A DNA stretch of 30,268 bases from a virus (lineage: Duplodnaviria > Caudoviricetes). Position 1 is the first letter of the stretch; every line of letters begins with the position of its first letter. The notes beneath the pieces were generated by a model. The model was not told the DNA's origin, did not search any database, and was given only the letters and a program-made list of their open reading frames with translations. Location of the stretch: the IMG/VR virus record IMGVR_UViG_3300036713_000669, positions 1 through 30,268 of that record. The stretch is one strand, 5' to 3'. Positions 2,385 through 30,181 of this stretch are shown here, piece after piece. The translations under genes and the position numbers were made by a program.

Positions 2385-3089
2385 AATTAAACCTGCTCAC
2401 CTTTTAATCGCAAATGAAAAGGAATGAAACTGTTTAGTCTTTGATTGTAAAAGAAAATTAAAACATATGTTCCTAAATCCCTTTCTGTCGAGCCCATAAA
2501 AGAAACTTGGGTATTTTTTGCCTCATCAATAGTTGGGCGTTTTGACGAAACAATTTCCAAACCGTTATATACAACTACATCCTTTAAATAAAAAGCGTAC
2601 TTTTTTATATCAAATGGAAAATAAATAGGCTCGTCCGTGATATTGCCGGTTACCTCATCAACAACGGTGGCACTGATTATTTCTGTGCCATCCTTATTTT
2701 CAATCCTTTGGTATCCCTGTTGGATGCCGGCGTTATGGCCTAAGCAATGCCAAACACCTATGATTTCCGGTGCTAACCCTAAATCTGTCAAGGTGTCATT
2801 CATCGCTTGGATAGAGCTTATAGAGCTGAAATTCCCTTGATAGGCTGCACGCCCATTAATTTCACGACATTCTGGCAATTGCGATACATAATCGTATTGG
2901 CGAAATGCTGCCATTTGCTCAGGCGTTAAATGATCAGTCATTATCGACATTGAAAAAATCACGTTATACATAATTGAACCCGCCTTACTTTTAATTGCAA
3001 AAAGGGAAAGAAACCGCCTAGCTTTTAATTGCAAAAAAGAAAAGGAAAGAAACCGCTTAGTCTTTGATTTTAAAAGAAAATTAAAATTA
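1872..3089. repeat. Tandem duplication of a ~0.6 kb leader+gene cassette (about 1872-2463 and 2464-3089)
   Basis: Direct nucleotide alignment of the two genes, plus the shared leader ttttaattttctttta(c/a)aatcaaagactaa... on the minus strand. Confidence 0.9.
2387..2971 (-). CDS. Hypothetical protein, paralog copy A (true start MYNVIF at 2971; C-terminus reads through into the duplicated leader)
   Basis: Same N-terminus as copy B with AAGG/GGCGGG upstream; ORF-track extension to 3106 is repeat-derived leader. Confidence 0.7.
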   Translation of the reverse strand: MYNVIFSMSIMTDHLTPEQMAAFRQYDYVSQLPECREINGRAAYQGNFSSISSIQAMNDTLTDLGLAPEIIGVWHCLGHNAGIQQGYQRIENKDGTEIISATVVDEVTGNITDEPIYFPFDIKKYAFYLKDVVVYNGLEIVSSKRPTIDEAKNTQVSFMGSTERDLGTYVLIFFYNQRLNSFIPFHLRLKGEQV

Positions 3090-9282: not shown

Positions 9283-9430
9283 CCGCCCAGCATTTAATTG
9301 TAAAAAGAAAAAAAAACAATACCCGCCGCAAGGCCGAGATATCGCCCAGTAGCAAAATGCAAAAAAAGAAAACTGAACACCCGCCGCAAGGCCGAGATAT
9401 CGCCCAGTAGCAAAATGCAAAAAAAAAAGG
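9283..9430 (-). repeat. Diverged ~58-bp repeat array (about 2.5 units) directly upstream of the portal start
   Basis: CGCCCAG cores at 9284, 9343, 9401, each followed by aaTG(C/T)AAAAA; same family as the 24.8 and 29.4 kb arrays. Confidence 0.85.
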
Positions 9431-9431
9431 T

Positions 9432-9737
9432 TTATTTACCAAATATATATGGCCGATGTGAAAATAAATCAGGCACCGCGTCAATAACTTGGCGTATCAA
9501 TTTCTTAATCTCACTGGGGTTTAAATTTATCGCTTTTCCAAATATGACCGCGTTATGAATAAGAGCTTTTGTCGGACTACCATCATGTGTGACAAATAGA
9601 TGAGCGTTATCAATATGTATACCCCAACTAAGGTGTGTTTTATTTGCATCTAATATAAGCCCTGGCTTTACTATACCCTCAACATTGATATACGCCAACA
9701 AGATTGAGTATGAATTATTTCTGTAGATTGTCTTCAT
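9432..9737 (-). CDS. Hypothetical protein preceding the portal
   Basis: Clean 101-aa ORF overlapping the terS 3' end, in operon orientation. Confidence 0.7.
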   Translation of the reverse strand: MKTIYRNNSYSILLAYINVEGIVKPGLILDANKTHLSWGIHIDNAHLFVTHDGSPTKALIHNAVIFGKAINLNPSEIKKLIRQVIDAVPDLFSHRPYIFGK

Positions 9738-10290
9738 CTTCGCTTAAAATACCTTGATATATATCAGAAAATATCTGTTCTTGCCTTGATTGTTCATCAA
9801 ATAGCTTTAAATATTTTGACAACATTATCCGACTATTATTTTTGTCAACAAACTTGTATTGTACAACAGTTTTTTTCTCACCATCTTTTTCTGTTTGCGT
9901 CACTTGTAGATTTTGAATAGCACTGGAGCAATGACTAGGGAGTTGGTGAATTGGAATAAGGTTTCCATTCTCATCGAATAGATCGCTAGGATTGAAAAAA
10001 GCACTCTCCGCAATTGATTGTATAACCTTTTCTGAAGTTATCGCATATTTATCTTTAATTTCATCCAGTAAATTTTTTAACTCCTCTTGCACTGGAGTTG
10101 AGTTAAAGTATCTATGGGCTAAATTTCTGATAGTATTCCAATTTTTCCCTTTATGTTGCGGGAAGGTCGCTAAAAACGACTTCTTGACATTTTGGGATGC
10201 CAAATAATGGGCACAAAAAATCTCTTGGTTTTTAACTGATATGTCGAATCTATTCGGTATCACCTCTAACTGATTTGATAAGGTTTCCAT
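9715..10290 (-). CDS. terS: Terminase small subunit
   Basis: N-terminal HTH (QEIFCAHYL...), then ITSEKVIQSIAESAFFNPSDLFDENGNLIPIHQLP...KFVDK..S..ML.KYL, typical of Terminase_2-like TerS. Confidence 0.85.
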   Translation of the reverse strand: METLSNQLEVIPNRFDISVKNQEIFCAHYLASQNVKKSFLATFPQHKGKNWNTIRNLAHRYFNSTPVQEELKNLLDEIKDKYAITSEKVIQSIAESAFFNPSDLFDENGNLIPIHQLPSHCSSAIQNLQVTQTEKDGEKKTVVQYKFVDKNNSRIMLSKYLKLFDEQSRQEQIFSDIYQGILSEDEDNLQK

Positions 10291-11781
10291 ATGTTCCCTT
10301 CTGACGTAAAAGATAAATTAAAGGCTTGTTTCTCAAGTCAAGAGTGGCGGCTAAACAACTTATACTACATAATCGACAGAGAAGGTAAGAAAGTGTTGTT
10401 TAAATGCCGCCCACAGCAAAAAATGTTATTTGATGATATGAAGGATTTTAACATTATTTTGAAGGCACGCCAATTAGGTTTCTCAACCGCTATATGTATA
10501 TATATATTGGATAGCTGCTTATTTAAATCAAATGTACGCGCCGCCATCATTACGCATACAAGAGAAGATTCTCAATTTTTGTTTAGGGATAAGATAAAAT
10601 TTGCGTACAACAGTTTGCCGGCGATGATAAAAAAACAAGTGCAAGCTGACACAAACACCAGCTCAGTTGTTTATTTTAGCAATAATAGCAATATCCGAGT
10701 CGGGACTTCAATGCGTTCAAGCACACTAAATATCTTGCATGTTAGTGAGTTGGGTAAAATATCCGTAAAATATCCCGAAAAAGCACGCGAGATTAAAACT
10801 GGTGCTTTTAATGCAATCCATGATGGCCAAAAAGTCTTTGTTGAATCTACAGCCGAAGGGAAGGTGGGCTTGTTCTACGAATTATGTAAGGCCGCTGAAA
10901 ACAACACATTGGGCAATAATGTCAAAATGTTCTTTTTCCCTTGGCATGACAACCCTGATTATAGATTGTCCAATGCAAAATTGAACCTTACTGATTCTGA
11001 GCGCGAATATTTTGACCGGCTGAAAACTGTGAAAGAACTTGGATTAACAATGCCACAAAAATATTGGTATGTAAACAAATGGCGTAAACAAAGATTAGGA
11101 GGCGGAGACTCAATGCATCAGGAATATCCATCGTATCCAGAAGAGGCTTTTGAAATACCTATTGTTGGGGCGTATTTCGGCAAGGAAATTGCCAAATTGT
11201 ATGACGAAGGCAGGATAACGTCATTTTCACATGAACCCTCAGTACCAGTGAATACCTTTTGGGATATTGGTTATAATGACACAACCGCGATATGGTTTCA
11301 TCAAAGAATCGGGTTAGAGGATAGGTTTATAGATTATTATGAAGAGAATGGTGAGGTCTTGGCGCATTATGTAAAGATGCTGACAAATAAGCCGTATGTT
11401 TATGGGGGCCACTTTCTCCCGCATGATATAAAGGTTCACGATATTAGTAGGCCGGATAGAAAAAGTCGGCTAGAGGTATTGGCAGAGTTGGGATTGAGAA
11501 ATCTTTATGTAGTGCCAAAGGCTAAAGATTTGTCAAATTCAGTGGAGATGATCAGGGAAGTATTGCCGAGCTGTTGGTTTGAAAAAGAAAAATGTGCCCA
11601 CGGATTATCTGCGCTTGAAAATTATAGAAAAACTTGGAGTGATGCACTAGACAGATTCACTAAACCATTCCACAATTGGGCCTCAAATGGTACTGATGCC
11701 TTTAGGATGTTTGCTACCGGATATATACCGGAGTTGAAAAAAAGTAAAGGTCGAGAGAGGCAGAACTGGAAAACAGTTTAG
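10291..11781 (+). CDS. terL: Terminase large subunit
   Basis: WRLNNLY, Walker A ILKARQLGFST, Walker B ILHVSELG, ESTAEG coupling motif, QEYPS.PEEAF, nuclease WDIG..D and H.WASNGTDAFR. Confidence 0.95.
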   Translation: MFPSDVKDKLKACFSSQEWRLNNLYYIIDREGKKVLFKCRPQQKMLFDDMKDFNIILKARQLGFSTAICIYILDSCLFKSNVRAAIITHTREDSQFLFRDKIKFAYNSLPAMIKKQVQADTNTSSVVYFSNNSNIRVGTSMRSSTLNILHVSELGKISVKYPEKAREIKTGAFNAIHDGQKVFVESTAEGKVGLFYELCKAAENNTLGNNVKMFFFPWHDNPDYRLSNAKLNLTDSEREYFDRLKTVKELGLTMPQKYWYVNKWRKQRLGGGDSMHQEYPSYPEEAFEIPIVGAYFGKEIAKLYDEGRITSFSHEPSVPVNTFWDIGYNDTTAIWFHQRIGLEDRFIDYYEENGEVLAHYVKMLTNKPYVYGGHFLPHDIKVHDISRPDRKSRLEVLAELGLRNLYVVPKAKDLSNSVEMIREVLPSCWFEKEKCAHGLSALENYRKTWSDALDRFTKPFHNWASNGTDAFRMFATGYIPELKKSKGRERQNWKTV

Positions 11782-11869: not shown

Positions 11870-12217
11870 ATGAATGAATTGGTTCAAAAAATGGCTGAAA
11901 TTGAAAAGCACCTTGCGAGTCAAAATGGGAGCTTTAAACTTTTCGCCTTATTTCTTAGAGATGGATCGCCAGACAAGTGGGATGTTTTGGTTTCTGCCGA
12001 CTGGATTAATGCTGATAAACGACAAGCATTGAAGATAATTGTCCAACAATTGACCACTAAACTCAATAAAGATGAACTCATATCTTTGTCTCGCGTTGTT
12101 GTTATTGATAAAGACAATCAAGGTTTATCTGAAATAAACACTGAAATACATGACGAGAACATCTTAGGTTTAGATATAAAGTATGGGTTTTTAATTTCAT
12201 CTCAAGGGATAAAATAG
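11870..12217 (+). CDS. Conserved hypothetical (moron-like) protein
   Basis: 115-aa ORF with FALFLRDGSPDKWDVLVSA.W motif; flanked by G-rich direct repeats. Confidence 0.75.
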   Translation: MNELVQKMAEIEKHLASQNGSFKLFALFLRDGSPDKWDVLVSADWINADKRQALKIIVQQLTTKLNKDELISLSRVVVIDKDNQGLSEINTEIHDENILGLDIKYGFLISSQGIK

Positions 12218-12930: not shown

Positions 12931-13027
12931 TATGATGGCTTGTGCCCATAACTATATTAGCGATTGATGATATTGGGCGATAAGATATGCTGGTTTGAAA
13001 CAATGAAAAAAATTGGAGGCAAATATA

Positions 13028-13444
13028 GTGAGTGAATTTTTGATTGACTTCGATGAGTACAAACAGGAATATATAACTGAGCACTTTAAGATTTCTGAGT
13101 TTAGATCAAAGGATGGCGCGGAGATGTCGGATGAGGTGAGGTTTAACATTGTGACATTAGCCAAACAACTAGAGGTTTTGCGTAGTGTCTTAAAAGTGCC
13201 GATACACATTAATAGTGGATATCGTAGCACGGCATACAATCTAGCAGTCGGCGGTGTGTATAACAGTTATCACGTATTGGGTAAAGCTGCCGACATATGG
13301 ACAAAAGAAGTGCGGCCTAAAGAGATAGCATCAACCTTACAATCTTTAATGCGTAACGGAGACATATATATTGGCGGTATTGGTTTGTACAAAACGTTTG
13401 TGCATTATGATATTAGGCTACAGCATAGGTTTTGGTATGGTTAA
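13028..13444 (+). CDS. Peptidase M15A-family endolysin (D-Ala-D-Ala carboxypeptidase fold)
   Basis: HFKISEF, PIHINSGYRS..YN..VGG..NSYH..GKAADI, GIGLY.TFVHYD.R; GGAGG RBS before GTG 13028. Confidence 0.88.
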   Translation: MSEFLIDFDEYKQEYITEHFKISEFRSKDGAEMSDEVRFNIVTLAKQLEVLRSVLKVPIHINSGYRSTAYNLAVGGVYNSYHVLGKAADIWTKEVRPKEIASTLQSLMRNGDIYIGGIGLYKTFVHYDIRLQHRFWYG

Positions 13445-13449
13445 AATTG

Positions 13450-13522
13450 TGGGCCTGGTAGGACTCGAACCTACAACCAATCAATAATGAGTCAAGTGCT
13501 CTACCAATTGAGCTACAGGCCC
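13450..13522 (-). tRNA. tRNA with CAT anticodon (Ile2/Met-like), atypical anticodon arm, possibly pseudo
   Basis: GGGCCTG acceptor stem paired with CAGGCCC, D arm GCTC-AATTGGTA-GAGC, T arm GTAGG-TTCGAGT-CCTAC; anticodon loop CTCATTA; 3' end ACAA. Confidence 0.85.
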
Positions 13523-13560
13523 TTTAATAAAGTGAACATATTACCAGATTGGCCAAAGGA

Positions 13561-13589
13561 TTGACAGTATTTGCTCTGGGCTTTAAAAT
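13561..13589 (+). promoter_or_regulatory. Near-consensus sigma70 promoter upstream of the mini-array
   Basis: TTGACA-17 bp-TAAAAT. Confidence 0.75.
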
Positions 13590-13631
13590 ACTCGCGGCAT
13601 AAATTGCTTTAAATAGGCAAGCGAGTATGAT

Positions 13632-13723
13632 GTTACAGAACCCTATAAGGGGTTATGAGTCAAACGGATGGCTGGATAGTTATGGAAAACCTCAAGTTAC
13701 AGAACCCCATGAGGGATATAGAT
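13632..13723 (+). CRISPR. Cas-less single-spacer CRISPR-like mini-array (28-bp repeat, 36-bp spacer, degenerate repeat)
   Basis: R1 GTTACAGAACCCTATAAGGGGTTATGAG (13632-13659), spacer 13660-13695, R2 GTTACAGAACCCCATGAGGGATATAGAT (13696-13723); 21/28 identical; AACCC/GGGTT hairpin. Confidence 0.65.
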
Positions 13724-13764
13724 GCACGCGAACCCAACACCTTAATTGAAATAAGCAAAAAGAC

Positions 13765-13794
13765 TTGACACGCTCTATCTTAAATTGAGATAAT
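13765..13794 (+). promoter_or_regulatory. Second sigma70-like promoter
   Basis: TTGACA-18 bp-GATAAT with TGn extension. Confidence 0.55.
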
Positions 13795-13799
13795 CCGCT

Positions 13800-13965
13800 A
13801 TGATTTAAACTATACCTCAAGCGGTTAGTAAGGTGATGCATTTGGGCAAAAATGTGGTGTAAATACCACATATCCTCTCCTTCCTCTGCTAAAAGTCCGG
13901 AGTCGTTTGTCCCACCTTAAATTAATCGTGTGTGCCGTCGTTGGTAGCGGCGGCATACCTTATTC
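13800..13965 (+). ncRNA. Candidate ~160-nt small RNA
   Basis: Promoter upstream, internal ATGTGGT-gtaaat-ACCACAT hairpin, CT-rich tract, terminal 13-bp hairpin 13930-13958 whose G-U pairs favour the + strand. Confidence 0.4.
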
Positions 13966-14181
13966 TTAATTCTCAATCAGTTTATCCTTAACTTTGTTGT
14001 AACGATAAAGCTTATACTTCTCAACTAAGTTATTGAAAGCTGTATCCAGATTTACAGTACCCCATTCTGGAGTCAATTCACTTCTGATTACTGCCCACCG
14101 ATTCATCCCAATATTGGTACAGCCAACTATAGCGTATTCACATTCCGTTAATGTGATCCAATCTTCATCATTTTCAGCCAC
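13966..14181 (-). CDS. Hypothetical protein
   Basis: 71-aa ORF with AAGGA RBS; divergent from the holin. Confidence 0.55.
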   Translation of the reverse strand: MAENDEDWITLTECEYAIVGCTNIGMNRWAVIRSELTPEWGTVNLDTAFNNLVEKYKLYRYNKVKDKLIEN

Positions 14182-14245
14182 AATATTATCCTTTTATGTT
14201 AATTTGGGCGATATCAATACTAATAATAACTTATGGAGTGAAAAA

Positions 14246-14608
14246 ATGGTAGATTGGAATCCAATTGTCGATTTTGTTAATATACTCGTAGGATTTTTGC
14301 CATACTTATTTTTAGGGATATTGGGCGGCGTAGTGGGATTGTTTATGAATGGCACTTGCGATAACGGCTGTGGTATCGTCATCGTAATAAAACGATGTGT
14401 AGTCTCTGCATTTGTTTCTTGCCTAGCATTTTTTTTAGCCTCAGAGCTTGCGCTAACAGATAACTATAAGATGTTGTTGGTGGGAGTGTCTGGGTTTGTG
14501 TCGTTAGATATATTGCCGTTGCTTCGGGAATATACGCTAAAGTTTTTTGAAGGGTGGGCTAAAGGAGAAAAGGGGACTCCCTTAAATAAGAGGATTGGTA
14601 ATGTATAA
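14246..14608 (+). CDS. Putative holin (LydA-like)
   Basis: Several hydrophobic helices (LFLGILGGVVG, VVSAFVSCLAFF, LLVGVSGF), basic C-terminus; GGAG RBS before ATG 14246. Confidence 0.7.
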   Translation: MVDWNPIVDFVNILVGFLPYLFLGILGGVVGLFMNGTCDNGCGIVIVIKRCVVSAFVSCLAFFLASELALTDNYKMLLVGVSGFVSLDILPLLREYTLKFFEGWAKGEKGTPLNKRIGNV

Positions 14609-15131
14609 CATAATCTTTACAATAGAAGATATGCATGGCGCAAAATTAATGGCACTTTTGCAATACCTAAAGAGTAAGTTTAGGTTTGTGCATTTAATAC
14701 CGGAGATGCGGAAAGTGGATGGGCGCGTAGCATATCAGGGCAATGTAAGTACTTTGCCCGCAGTAAGAACCTTGAGGTCGGAATTAAGTATTATAGGTGT
14801 GGATTGTGACGTGATAGGAGTCTGGCAGACGGAGGGTAAGAACGCGGGATTACAGCAGGGATACACATTAGCGAATGTGACTGATGATATCGCCCCAGAA
14901 TACAAAGTGGTTAGGGCTAAGGTTGTGGAGCAAACAGACCTCTCTGTTATTGATGAGGCAATAGTCCACCCGTTTAATTTCAATGAATACCGTAAATTTT
15001 TAATTGACCGAGTGACGGTTAATGATGAACATAAAGTTGTGCGGAGTAGGCCCACCGCAAGGGAGGCTCAAGACACACAGGTGGCCTCTTTTTTTGCAAA
15101 TAAAAAAAGGGACTTAACAACTTATGTGTAG
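14601..15131 (+). CDS. Hypothetical protein, distant third paralog of the 1860-2971 pair
   Basis: Shares MYNxIF, PE.R..GR.AYQGN, IGVW...G.NAG.QQGY, RPT..EA...QV..F, RDL.TY. Confidence 0.8.
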   Translation: MYNIIFTIEDMHGAKLMALLQYLKSKFRFVHLIPEMRKVDGRVAYQGNVSTLPAVRTLRSELSIIGVDCDVIGVWQTEGKNAGLQQGYTLANVTDDIAPEYKVVRAKVVEQTDLSVIDEAIVHPFNFNEYRKFLIDRVTVNDEHKVVRSRPTAREAQDTQVASFFANKKRDLTTYV

Positions 15132-19874: not shown

Positions 19875-20726
19875 ATGAAATTTAAAATACCCGCTTTGCA
19901 CGCCACTTTTTGGCGTGTGTATGAAAAAATAAATGCTGGACGTGAGAAAAGTATCGCTTGCAAATTTAGTCGCGAAGATAGGACTTTATTGCGGAAAATA
20001 TTAGGTAATCACACATTAAATGATAGTTTGATAAGGGTATCGGGTCTGGCAAAGGAGTATGCGAGTGAGTATGTCGGTGATAGTGAAGTGCATACAGCAT
20101 ATTATAGGTTTATGCGGAGGTTCCAACGAGATAGGATTCCGCATATTATGGTTGGTCGTCAGTTATACACCAAACGTGGTGTCACAAAGTGGAGAGATTT
20201 TAAGTTGACCAAAGCGGAGCGTGTATATTGGACTATATTAATAAAGCTTAATGAAGTGGCAAACAGACGCACCTTGAAATGCCGATTTACAAGATTTGAA
20301 ACTGATTTCCTTTTGAAGACTTTAAAAAACCACCCACTTTACAAAAGCTTAATACCTTTACCGGAGTTTGTGCGTAAACTATTTTTAATAAGGCGAGAAT
20401 ATTTATATAGAAGTCTTTATAACCGTTACATAGGACGGATTAGAAGAGGATATATCCCAGCTTTGAAGGTTGGTGGTAGATGGTTTATGCGTGTAGAGAC
20501 GTTTAAGGAATTTGAATATATTGAACTCAATGGTGGTGAAAAGACCTCACTAAAGCGCGAAACGCGGGAATTTAAAAAAATAGCGAGTATAATAAAAAAA
20601 GAAAATCTTGCCCCCACCCCAGAACTATTGATTACCCGTTTTGAAATGTCGGGCTACAAGAGCTTTCTATTTTTAGAGTATTATGATCATCATCATTTAA
20701 ACATTGAGTCAACGGAGCAACCATAA
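19875..20726 (+). CDS. Basic putative DNA-binding protein with an internal tandem domain duplication
   Basis: Two ~105-aa units each ending in an excisionase/HTH_17-like wing (IPHIMVGRQLY; IPALKVGGRWF). Confidence 0.6.
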   Translation: MKFKIPALHATFWRVYEKINAGREKSIACKFSREDRTLLRKILGNHTLNDSLIRVSGLAKEYASEYVGDSEVHTAYYRFMRRFQRDRIPHIMVGRQLYTKRGVTKWRDFKLTKAERVYWTILIKLNEVANRRTLKCRFTRFETDFLLKTLKNHPLYKSLIPLPEFVRKLFLIRREYLYRSLYNRYIGRIRRGYIPALKVGGRWFMRVETFKEFEYIELNGGEKTSLKRETREFKKIASIIKKENLAPTPELLITRFEMSGYKSFLFLEYYDHHHLNIESTEQP

Positions 20727-20819
20727 AGGATTGCCCCTACAAAAACGGCACTGAAGGTTGGGGCAATCCCTTGTGGTTGTCCAAATTAGCACTCAATAAA
20801 TATATACCAAAGGGCGATA

Positions 20820-24146: not shown

Positions 24147-24782
24147 ATGAATTATGCATTAAGTAACTTTCCATTTAATAGTGGGCTGGGTTTTAAAGAG
24201 CAAGTCACTGTAGTATTGACTGAGCCAGCCCATACAATAACGCTTACAAAGCGTTCTAGTGAAATAAACCTTTCACCTACTACCCCATCAATTAGCTTTG
24301 AGGGCGATATAAGATATGGAGAAGTTAAACGTTTTATCAAGACAACAATAACAGAAAAAATGGAAGTGTACTGCTCCGATTACAAGGCTGATATTAGCGA
24401 TACCTTTACTTCATTAGGTAATTTAGGCGGAGTTATTATTGGTCAGAATAATGATGGGCTTTACGCATTGACAGCTAGTGATGATGAAGGGGCAAGTATT
24501 GATGCCTCCGTAAAAACAACACCGATTGATTTTGATGACGAACAAATTAAATTGATTTTCAGGCTACGGTATATCACGGACTCCGAAAATCTACAGGCGT
24601 TGGTAAGTGTAAACGGCAATGATTACACACTTGATCCATTTTACGCGGGGAGTGGCAACCTTTTTTTTCGTATTGCGGAGCCAGAAAAGGCTCAATTTTA
24701 TGAAATTGGTTTCCAGAATACGGGGGGGGAGGACTTTTTTTTCAATTATTCACAAGTAACATATATTCAGTTTGATAGATAA
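24147..24782 (+). CDS. Putative virion protein
   Basis: Acidic 211-aa ORF in the tail cluster; GLYALT..DDEG..IDA.V.T...DF motif. Confidence 0.55.
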   Translation: MNYALSNFPFNSGLGFKEQVTVVLTEPAHTITLTKRSSEINLSPTTPSISFEGDIRYGEVKRFIKTTITEKMEVYCSDYKADISDTFTSLGNLGGVIIGQNNDGLYALTASDDEGASIDASVKTTPIDFDDEQIKLIFRLRYITDSENLQALVSVNGNDYTLDPFYAGSGNLFFRIAEPEKAQFYEIGFQNTGGEDFFFNYSQVTYIQFDR

Positions 24783-25120
24783 CTTTTACAATACTAGGCG
24801 GTGCTTCGGCCCTGTAGCGGGAGTCGGGCTTTTCTTTTTGCATTTAGATACTGGGCGGTGCTCCGGCCCTGTGGCGGGAGTCGGGCTTTTCTTTTTACAA
24901 TTAGCTGCTGGGCGGTGCTCCGGCCCTGTAGCGGGAGTCGGGCTTTTCTTTTTGCATTTAGATACTGGGCGGTGCTCCGGCCCTGTGGCGGGAGTCAGGC
25001 TTTTCTTTTTACAATTAGCTGCTGGGCGGTGCTCTGGCCCTGTAGCGGAGGTCGGGCTTTTCTTTTTACAATTAGCTGCTGGGCGGTGCTCCGAGCCTGG
25101 GGCCCTTTCTTTTGGCAATG
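24783..25120 (+). repeat. 57-bp tandem repeat array (5 full units + partial)
   Basis: GGCGGTGCT cores every 57 bp from ~24797 to ~25082; each unit is a GC hairpin + TTTTCTTTTT + (G/A)CA(T/A)TTAG box. Confidence 0.95.
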
Positions 25121-27477: not shown

Positions 27478-27690
27478 CTTTGTTTTTTGCAATTGCCTAG
27501 CTCGTCGGGACGCTTAAAATTGTGGCCCAGCTTATGTACTCCGACCATAAGCTAAATGCAAAAAGACAAAAGAAAGGGATGGGCCGCACACTCGGAGCAC
27601 TAACTAGCACCGCCCAGCAGCTAATTGTAAAAAGAAAAGCCAGACTTCCACCACAGGCCCAGAGTATCGCCCAATAACCAATTGCAACAA
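27478..27690. repeat. Cluster of 57-bp-family units at a convergent junction (1.5 clear units at 27605-27690 plus degenerate boxes)
   Basis: tagcaccgcccagcagctaattgtaaaaagaaaagcc...gagtatcgcccaata, nearly identical to 29444-29525. Confidence 0.85.
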
Positions 27691-27886
27691 GATTGTTGCC
27701 AGTTGATGATCCTGTAAAAAATTTTTCAGAATTAAGCGAATCTGTGTTAATATTTTTCTAAAGCAAATCTTAAAAAAAGGGGGGCGGGGGGTAAAAAAAT
27801 GACGATTCTTTTTGCAATGGAAAGCTGGGGCTAAGCTATTAAAATAGTGTGAAATCAACCCGCTTTTTAGCGGGCTGATGGCTATA

Positions 27887-29236: not shown

Positions 29237-29443
29237 AATTATTACCCCCATCCTTAATTGAAATAAATCAAAATTAATCAATACAGGAGTAATAATAACA
29301 CAGGTTTAGTGCTTGTCAACCCCTTTTGTTAAATATTTTTTAACCTATTTTTTAACCCTTATATATAATTAGATAGACTATAAAAACCAAATTGTCAATA
29401 GTGAGGCGGTATTTTTTTTAATCTGTGCCCCGCAAGTATGGAG

Positions 29444-30050
29444 TAGCACCGCCCAGCATCTAATTGTAAAAAGAAAAGCCCGACTCCCGCCACAGGCCCA
29501 GAGTATCGCCCAATAGCTAATTGCAAAAAGAAAAGCCTGACCTCCGCTACAGGGCCAGAGCACCGCCCAGTATCTAAATGCAAAAAGAAAAGCCAGGCTC
29601 CCGCTACAGGGCCAGAGCATCGCCCAGTATTTAAATGCAAAAAGAAAAGCCAGGCTCCCGCTACAGGGCCTGAGCACCGCCCAGTACCTAAATGCAAAAA
29701 GAAAAGCCTGACCTCCGCTACAGGGCCAGAGCATCGCCCAGTATTTAAATGCAAAAAGAAAAGCCAGGCTCCCGCTACAGGGCCGGAGCACCGCCCAGTA
29801 CCTAAATGCAAAAAGAAAAGCCTGACCTCCGCTACAGGGCCAGAGCACCGCCCAGTATTTAAATGCAAAAAGAAAAGCCAGGCTCCCGCTACAGGGCCGG
29901 AGCACCGCCCAGTATCTAAATGCAAAAAGAAAAGCCTGACCTCCGCTACAGGGCCAGAGCACCGCCCAGTATCTAAATGCAAAAAGAAAAGCCAGACCTC
30001 CGCTACAGGGCCAGAGCATCGCCCAATAGCTAATTGCAAAAAGAAAAAGG
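29444..30050 (-). repeat. 57-bp tandem repeat array (10 full units + partial), inverted relative to the 24.8 kb array
   Basis: CGCCCA cores at 29450, 29507 ... 30020 with exact 57-bp period. Confidence 0.95.
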
Positions 30051-30181
30051 GGGGGGAGTACCAAAGGCCCTAAACACTCCGACCAGAAGTTAATTATAAA
30101 AAGGCTTCTCTGTACTGCGGGGAATAGTTCCATCTAAATGCTTCCCAACCCTAAAGATTATGGGCGCAGAGGAGTAAGTGG

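Follow-up and report, generated by a model that had tools for sequence, protein, structure and literature searches.

The closest described relatives of the locus studied here are virus-borne mini-arrays (Medvedeva et al. 2019, PMC6858448; review, PMC11656645), in which a promoter precedes one spacer flanked by two repeats, no cas genes are present and the unit depends on Cas proteins made by its host. The phage mini-arrays in these two reports are leaderless, their repeats are identical to those of the host, and they target related viruses. Some huge-phage spacers match bacterial chromosomal genes, such as a sigma-70 gene and that for glycyl-tRNA synthetase (Al-Shayeb et al. 2020, PMC7162821); they lie in multi-repeat arrays, some of them in loci without Cas. 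Cracrs (bioRxiv 2024.10.29.618823, bioRxiv 2023.03.03.530964) are phage RNAs that reprogram host Cas proteins onto host DNA. They are copies of host CreA/CreR guides directed at cas or toxin promoters, and are listed for types V-A, I-B, I-C, I-E and I-F; no mention of I-D was found in bioRxiv 2024.10.29.618823. Racrs (PMC10651486) are solitary repeats, expressed by phages from a promoter, whose RNA can compete for Cas6 and Cas7. Type I-D systems, as outlined in PMC10212523, comprise Cas10d, Cas7d, Cas5d, Cas6d, Cas3' and a WYL regulator, and their crRNA has a 5' handle of 8 nt.

By sequence comparison, our locus is a mini-array of a little-studied type I-D clade, and its guide is directed to a gene family of the host, not to a virus. 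It shares with the virus-borne mini-arrays the single spacer, the two repeats, the promoter, the missing leader and the missing cas genes, but its best target is a chromosomal gene family of the likely host, and no identical host repeat was found. Unlike the huge-phage arrays, it sits in a small podophage and has one spacer, of type I-D, against a multi-copy signalling family; unlike Cracrs, it carries a full-length I-D guide to the coding region of non-immune genes; and unlike Racrs, it has two repeats around a normal spacer, with a 64-nt period. Repeats of the clade are 28 nt long, its Cas1 reaches its best score with I-B models and its PAM is, by inference, ACC/GCC, whereas the published PAM of I-D, that of cyanobacterial systems, is GTN/GTH and their crRNA measures 72 nt (PMC10212523). 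Neither an I-D mini-array in a phage nor a phage guide to histidine kinases turned up in our literature search, although supplementary tables could hold related cases. The 3' word of the repeat was absent from two supplements of PMC10120712 (24,000 characters, large tables excluded) and from nine of PMC10651486.

The window is the whole 30,268-bp phage fragment, which comes from sediment and has a GC content of 40.6%. Pfam and PHROGs identified a P22-type portal, a capsid, both terminase subunits, a primase, RecE/RecT, an endolysin and a holin. The capsid is 47-49% identical to those of Bcep22-like podophages, and nearly identical phage DNA is present in two other studies. The terminase genes lie back to back with no gap (small, 9715-10290, minus strand; large, 10291-11781, plus strand), and genes of the structural, tail and recombination groups are mixed with one another on both strands, as if their order had been shuffled. 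Tandem repeats of one family, 57-58 bp long and with shorter related copies, recur in both orientations, often between genes (24734-25099, 27543-27692, 29331-30128, 9285-9429 and 2976-3088), and may be the recombination sites behind this order. Two ORFs of the tail region (1914-2398 and 2504-2985) hold duplicated blocks of 185 and 300 nt with 93-96% identity, which suggest exchangeable receptor-binding tips.

A promoter-fronted, one-spacer mini-array lies between the endolysin and tRNA genes and the holin gene of this podophage fragment. The order of the lysis region is endolysin, divergent tRNA(CAT), mini-array, a second promoter with a folded RNA, and holin (Table 1).

Table 1. Features of the mini-array, its flanks and the host markers of the phage fragment
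Feature	Position	Strand	Remarks
115-aa ORF, host marker	11870..12217	+	77-80% nucleotide identity in at least 8/55 order genomes; 0/121 other gammaproteobacteria
M15 peptidase endolysin	13013..13444	+	Left flank of the array
tRNA, CAT anticodon	13449..13522	-	Divergent from the array
Sigma-70-like promoter, TTGACA-17-TAAAAT	13561..13589	+	11/12 consensus; predicted from sequence only
Predicted short 5' leader of the transcript	13596..13631	+	Not the host array leader
Repeat 1, 28 nt, type I-D clade	13632..13659	+	Hairpin and last 11 nt intact
Predicted 64-nt crRNA (8-nt handle, spacer, 20-nt hairpin)	13652..13715	+	From the 8-nt 5' handle of I-D (PMC10212523) and the decay boundary
Spacer, 36 nt	13660..13695	+	Resembles kinase receiver-domain motif, same sense as kinase mRNA
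Repeat 2, trailer-like	13696..13723	+	nt 1-20 kept, nt 21-28 decayed
Second promoter (13765-13794, 11/12, extended -10) and candidate folded non-coding RNA	13765..13975	+	Fold z = -4.0
Holin-containing ORF	14033..14608	+	Right flank of the array
REP-like inverted pair, host marker	20717..20782		91-94% over 69-81 nt in G452, G453 and G454 (among the matches listed)

The original prediction had described the promoter, a 28-nt repeat, a 36-nt spacer and a second repeat, and each of these is present. The two repeats are identical at 19 of their first 22 positions and at 21 of all 28, with a period of 64 nt, and form the only pair in the window with at least 19/22 identity at a spacing of 55-75 nt, in a scan that left out three tandem-repeat zones. 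With a matrix made from eight distinct array repeats of other organisms, repeat 1 scored 31.7 bits and repeat 2 18.5 bits. The next site of the window reached 3.4 bits, and the best site per shuffled window averaged 4.8, with a maximum of 21.4 (n=300). Thus, repeat 1 stands clear alone, and repeat 2 does so only as its partner. The decay of repeat 2 at its 3' end, outside the parts that would form the crRNA, was borne out as well: the repeats differ at 2/20 positions in nt 1-20 and at 5/8 in nt 21-28 (Fisher p = 0.009), like 21 natural trailer repeats, in which the mean mismatch per position was 2/21 over nt 1-20 and 11/21 over nt 21-28. The differences at nt 13 and 16 are variants that also occur in natural arrays. 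These two positions co-vary across L190, L151, L134 and the window, reading CATG or TATA, both self-complementary, although they close no more than a two-base loop; a constraint at the DNA level is possible. No Cas protein was detected among the 44 window ORFs with Pfam and PHROGs or among 16 ORFs with PADLOC, in a contig that is a 30-kb fragment. The locus has the form of the predicted cas-less single-spacer unit, able to give a 64-nt crRNA.

Promoter-like sites are no more frequent than chance between 10000 and 18000, since 22 were observed and shuffles give 21.6; nevertheless, the site in front of the array is one of the two best, at 11/12. A profile of 22 host leaders had no match in 13300-13700, and 17 of these 22 leaders end in AGGG or GAGG, against TGAT in the phage. 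Since it lacks a host leader, the phage unit probably stems from the capture of a host array's last part and likely cannot take new spacers. The RNA candidate downstream has a pyrimidine-rich loop and a terminator-like hairpin at its end, has no Rfam match and is retained up to 13912 in a relative from run X4. Its terminator-like hairpin may also end the array transcript.

The stretch 12975-14700 is identical in a second run of the same sample, and a low-depth contig of another study, which covers 13667-13912, differs by one substitution and one insertion, neither of them within the array. In run X3 other parts of the phage were covered and the array was not; no contig there spans the array site, so this is not evidence of absence. 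None of 80 capsid-related viral loci, whose identity is only 49-59%, was found to hold a mini-array. One could take the unit for a non-functional relic of captured host DNA, given that the phage holds other host scraps (the REP pair and the 115-aa ORF) and that a single further study shows the array, carried by a nearly identical phage. We consider this very improbable, because the top-scoring promoter lies 42 nt upstream, the hairpin and the handle are intact and the decay is confined to the eight dispensable nucleotides.

The repeat had been thought to resemble type I-B. As judged from alignments and gene neighbourhoods, however, it belongs to a 28-nt family that adjoins divergent type I-D operons. 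Species genomes were scanned for two in-register hairpin cores, which yielded nine loci, one of which (L009) is a 29-repeat array beside an operon with the order cas6d-cas10d-cas7d-cas5d-cas3'-cas4-cas1-cas2, and the Cas7d of L009 retrieved three plasmid operons with the same gene order. The plasmid array of Thiothrix fructosivorans has more than 100 copies of a 28-nt repeat with a 64-nt period; this repeat matches repeat 1 at 22/28 positions, the first 5 and last 11 bases being common. The metagenome scan gave 92 loci of the family and the viral scan seven more, the best matches to repeat 1 being L190 and L151, at 25/28. Ten metagenome loci carry a Cas7d that is 55-67% identical to the Thiothrix protein, in searches with I-D queries only. 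WYL, Cas10d, Cas7d, Cas5d, Cas6d and Cas3' genes lie beside arrays of the clade repeat, the array stands 3' of cas2 in the orientation that the phage promoter would transcribe, and the modal spacer length in clade arrays is 36 nt (720/1407), that of the phage spacer. Holders of the repeat family include Thiothrix, Beggiatoaceae and others. Thus, the search for the repeat ended in a bona fide CRISPR family, at 22-25/28 identity, and yielded no array with the exact phage repeat in species genomes, metagenomes or viral contigs, the exact repeat patterns having 0 matches in the last; a one-base shift at nt 6-9, present in both phage repeats, occurs in no array found.

Some loci of the clade are incomplete or viral. 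L125 and L356 (G443) hold I-D effector genes, WYL and a short array, with no cas3', cas4, cas1 or cas2 within the 20 kb read; the HD motif is kept in the Cas10d of L107 and L125. The viral contigs L184, L187-L189 and L190 carry two-repeat or short I-D clade arrays, with no targets in the loci compared. In L185/L186 (~2900-3030, minus strand), a 54.7-kb phage, a promoter is followed by one I-D clade repeat, two different repeat-like hairpins, which we take to be I-E-like, and a terminator, possibly a mixed-type decoy RNA. Short I-D arrays are also present in L173 (8781-8970), a Mu-like prophage contig with Parabeggiatoa-named proteins, and in its relative L128 (2455-2676); their first spacers overlap on opposite strands, and L173 is matched by two spacers of L126. 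Finally, L121/L181 (857-950) hold a two-repeat unit adjoining cas4/cas2 remnants, whose spacer is derived from a cas gene (29/36 to cas7d of L174; 26/36 to cas7d of L164, with ACC upstream).

Shared DNA points to a host in the Beggiatoales. In the low-GC I-D loci, protein names point to Parabeggiatoa, Thioploca and Thiotrichaceae, and these loci are the best tetranucleotide matches to the window, which is weak evidence (r 0.55-0.58). A housekeeping protein of one such locus led to the order of G390, with 55 genomes, which we read as Beggiatoales because the operon of G443 has the same scores as that of the Parabeggiatoa-named locus L125. The I-D clade repeat is present in eight of these genomes and was not found in the other 47. 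A DNA search of the order for host markers scored five candidates per genome, and its figures are among the matches listed. Of the eight genomes with the 115-aa ORF among these matches, six carry I-D. The REP-like pair, which lies at the end of ORF 19875-20726, where assemblies break, reached at best 82% in five control genomes, and the phage tRNA up to 89% identity in the order (among the matches listed) against 81% in controls. A read pile at 20713-20779, taken at one point for a second CRISPR repeat, is this REP-like pair. Single REP arms are not host-specific: they occur in 7/401 genomes, and the five of the seven that were tested all lacked the I-D repeat. A distant capsid relative (34%) occurs in one genome of the order, no handle on the host order came out of a DNA search, and searches with RecT and the endolysin gave no close relatives. 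Both the host and its possession of an I-D system are likely; large sulfur bacteria are considered highly polyploid (PMC4971068).

Searches for a viral or regulatory target of the spacer gave chance matches. BLAST against phages and plasmids returned only such matches, and an 18-mer shared with Acinetobacter extends to 22/36 without a seed. Wobble-phase scans had 0 matches in viral contigs (three phases) and metagenomes (one phase), and a viral seed scan gave 55 matches, 31 of them distinct, with a best of 24/36 where 2.7 were expected. Within the window, the best seed was 8, below most mock values, and the best full match 20/36. In ten cas6-upstream regions, among which the promoter of the true host is not included, the best seed was 7, the mode of 200 mock spacers. 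No PAM-proximal match of at least 9 bases to a cas or toxin promoter, the mark of Cracr/CreA-type guides, was therefore found, nor was the match to a related virus or mobile element that marks mini-arrays used in competition, whereas a chromosomal gene of the host lineage, as for host-targeting phage spacers, is matched at 29-30/36. The uses first listed for such units, against a rival element, as an RNA anti-CRISPR or as a CreA-type repressor, are accordingly not the best fit: the search for the spacer and its PAM led to no virus and no cas promoter, and led instead to kinase sites behind ACC/GCC. In the reverse direction, the best match of a host spacer to the phage was 17 nt among 1407 spacers, and of 1563 not one matched it with at most 7 mismatches.

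In frame +2 the spacer reads QTDGWIVMENL, its first base completing a Pro codon and its last bases opening a Lys codon, and a family of hybrid histidine kinases reads, for example, LPQMDGWTVMEKLK. The original prediction of a coding protospacer holds in so far as the spacer is coding-derived, in this frame rather than the one quoted. Its argument from a stop-free frame carries no weight, since three of its six frames are open, which is the modal number for shuffles.

A seed search of the host order gave 65 matches, many in one motif, against 11 for a reversed control, and a degenerate pattern of the motif occurs in 42/55 order genomes, up to 10 times per genome, against 0 in the control. Among 44 sites in fetched loci, the best matches the spacer at 30/36 (L300) and eight more at 29/36; about 0.0003 sites of 30/36 are expected by chance (~240 Mb, both strands, independent bases). 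A 24/36 match in a kinase gene of L175 had been put down to chance, a reading that was rejected, and was later shown to belong to the same family. With positions 6, 18 and 31 left free, a choice made after the kinase family had been seen, 6/55 order genomes match, against 0/251 in a control limited to other gammaproteobacteria; three of the six carry the I-D repeat. On a matrix of 40 kinase sites picked by protein motif, the spacer scored 40.4 bits (4e-14 per site), against -3.4 for the runner-up within the window, at best -24.7 for 1216 natural spacers and at best -5.3 for 200,000 shuffles. We conclude that the spacer very probably derives from this kinase family.

The target genes encode hybrid kinases of 1186-1772 aa, some broken in assemblies, with the architecture HAMP/GAF/PAS-HisKA-HATPase-3xREC, and the spacer motif lies in the first receiver domain. 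Their neighbours are housekeeping chromosomal genes (alaS, D-Ala-D-Ala carboxypeptidase, aminotransferase), and the spacer and the crRNA have the sense of the kinase mRNA. No exact or near-exact target was found, the best being 30/36 and always mismatched at positions 1, 6 and 18, and no non-phage contig aligned to the spacer in the runs (X2 and X4 whole, X1 and X3 to about 75%; the reach of the aligner for 36 nt with scattered mismatches is uncertain). A host gene that reads exactly like the spacer may exist.

The true target might instead be a plasmid, prophage or island with a host-like kinase gene, the mini-array then serving in competition between elements. Most spacers of viral mini-arrays target related viruses (PMC11656645, PMC6858448), and I-D mini-arrays occur in the two Mu-like prophage contigs of the host group with overlapping first spacers. 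We find this quite improbable, as the wobble-phase, metagenome and seed scans returned no viral target beyond the chance level of 24/36, in databases where elements of sulfur bacteria are poorly sampled, and the closest receiver-domain relatives have at most 41% (phage) and 49% (plasmid) protein identity (best 15 each; all matches below 60%).

Next, we compared 1563 natural spacers with 2.4 Mb of the collected loci, allowing up to 7 mismatches. Of six matches, two lie in degenerate array ends and were dropped; the four accepted fall in pairs into a podophage record and a Mu-like prophage contig, and the bases immediately upstream of them are ACC, ACC, GCC and ACC (4/4 RCC), on the basis of two arrays and two target elements. 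A fifth, weak match (31/35, E 0.06) has ACG, and array BLASTs against plasmids and phages gave one weak match. These alignments suggest ACC/GCC, 5' of the protospacer, as the PAM of the clade; we found no paper on an ACC PAM with Thiothrix. The same bases stand upstream of 43 of the 44 kinase sites, against a background of 2.3-5.6%, because conserved Leu-Pro codons supply them at nearly every paralog. The RCC beside the kinase sites places the spacer on the strand and in the register that the clade machinery would need.

At three positions, 6, 18 and 31, the spacer departs from the kinase family; the bases it has there are shared by 1, 1 and 4 of 40 sites, respectively. In the ten best sites, wobble positions account for 45 of the 70 mismatches and every-sixth positions for 23, which leaves 2 elsewhere. 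The two non-wobble departures of the spacer fall at positions 6 and 18, that is, 2/2 at the 6 every-sixth positions among 24 non-wobble positions (p ~0.05), which is only suggestive. Class 1 backbones tolerate mismatches at every sixth position, in I-D probably at position 18 as well. The type I seed does not include position 6 (PMC10212523), and tolerance at every sixth position has been noted for regulatory guides (bioRxiv 2023.03.03.530964); nothing on such tolerance at position 18 for I-D was found in PMC9123187.

Our preferred reading, which we hold at slightly less than an even chance, is that the mini-array makes one crRNA and sends host Cascade to many kinase paralogs, where it would be tied up and would likely cut host DNA. 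The array would be transcribed from its own promoter, and host Cas6d would cut between nt 20 and 21 of the repeats to release the 64-nt crRNA. Its spacer, by comparison a copy of the conserved motif of the first receiver domain or selected to match it, would guide I-D Cascade to several kinase paralogs; as the crRNA has the sense of the mRNA, its pairing would be confined to template-strand DNA. With Cas3' and the HD domain the kinase sites would be cut, and without Cas3' they would only be bound; in either case Cascade would be kept from the phage, and all the more in polyploid cells. Points against targeting of the chromosome are that a lysogen would be harmed by a strong constitutive promoter and that neither the G443 stretch nor L125 shows cas3', cas1 or cas2 nearby. 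More tentatively, with the doubts outweighing the support, one guide to the most conserved PAM-fronted motif could let the 64-nt RNA recruit Cascade to the paralogs on every copy of a polyploid chromosome, combining a DNA-anchored sink with a borrowed host-shredding nuclease.

The spacer might also be a passenger, the phage having captured the last unit of a host array whose abundant crRNA-like RNA competes for Cas6d and Cas7d whatever its target. Capture from an array end fits the trailer-like repeat 2 and the missing leader, and a non-targeting crRNA lowered interference in the Racr study (PMC10651486). Spacers of chromosomal type also exist in the clade, as in the two-repeat unit of L121 with its match to cas7d of L174, and the shift at nt 6-9 is common to both phage repeats alone. 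We nevertheless regard this account as doubtful: Racrs are solitary repeats, while here the spacer is of normal length and the parts of both repeats that would form the crRNA are preserved; the departures of the spacer from the kinase family avoid paired positions, which is suggestive only; and such a passenger would be rare, since none of 1563 natural spacers has the receiver motif (three loose regex matches were to other motifs).

Silencing without cutting, in which a Cascade roadblock in several kinase genes damps host signalling much as Cracrs act at cas promoters, would explain why every site found has several mismatches and why some candidate hosts have I-D effector genes and no nearby cas3'; viral crRNA-like RNAs do reprogram Cas proteins to repress transcription (bioRxiv 2024.10.29.618823). 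It is an unlikely alternative when set against the position of the site, at about residue 1220 of 1552 in L357, deep in the coding region and not at a promoter, the full length of the spacer compared with truncated regulatory guides (bioRxiv 2023.03.03.530964) and the retained HD motif of Cas10d.

Viral mini-arrays are read as weapons against rivals or as repressors of cas genes. If the preferred reading, in which the crRNA sends Cascade to the kinase genes, is true, this locus would represent a third use, the multiplexed self-targeting of multi-copy signalling genes with one guide. The kinase-targeting reading is directly testable, because Thiothrix fructosivorans, a non-pathogen in culture, has a complete operon of the same clade. 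Further results are a candidate PAM (ACC/GCC) and a predicted crRNA size for this I-D clade, of which we found no description, and a likely host assignment for a phage of large sulfur bacteria.
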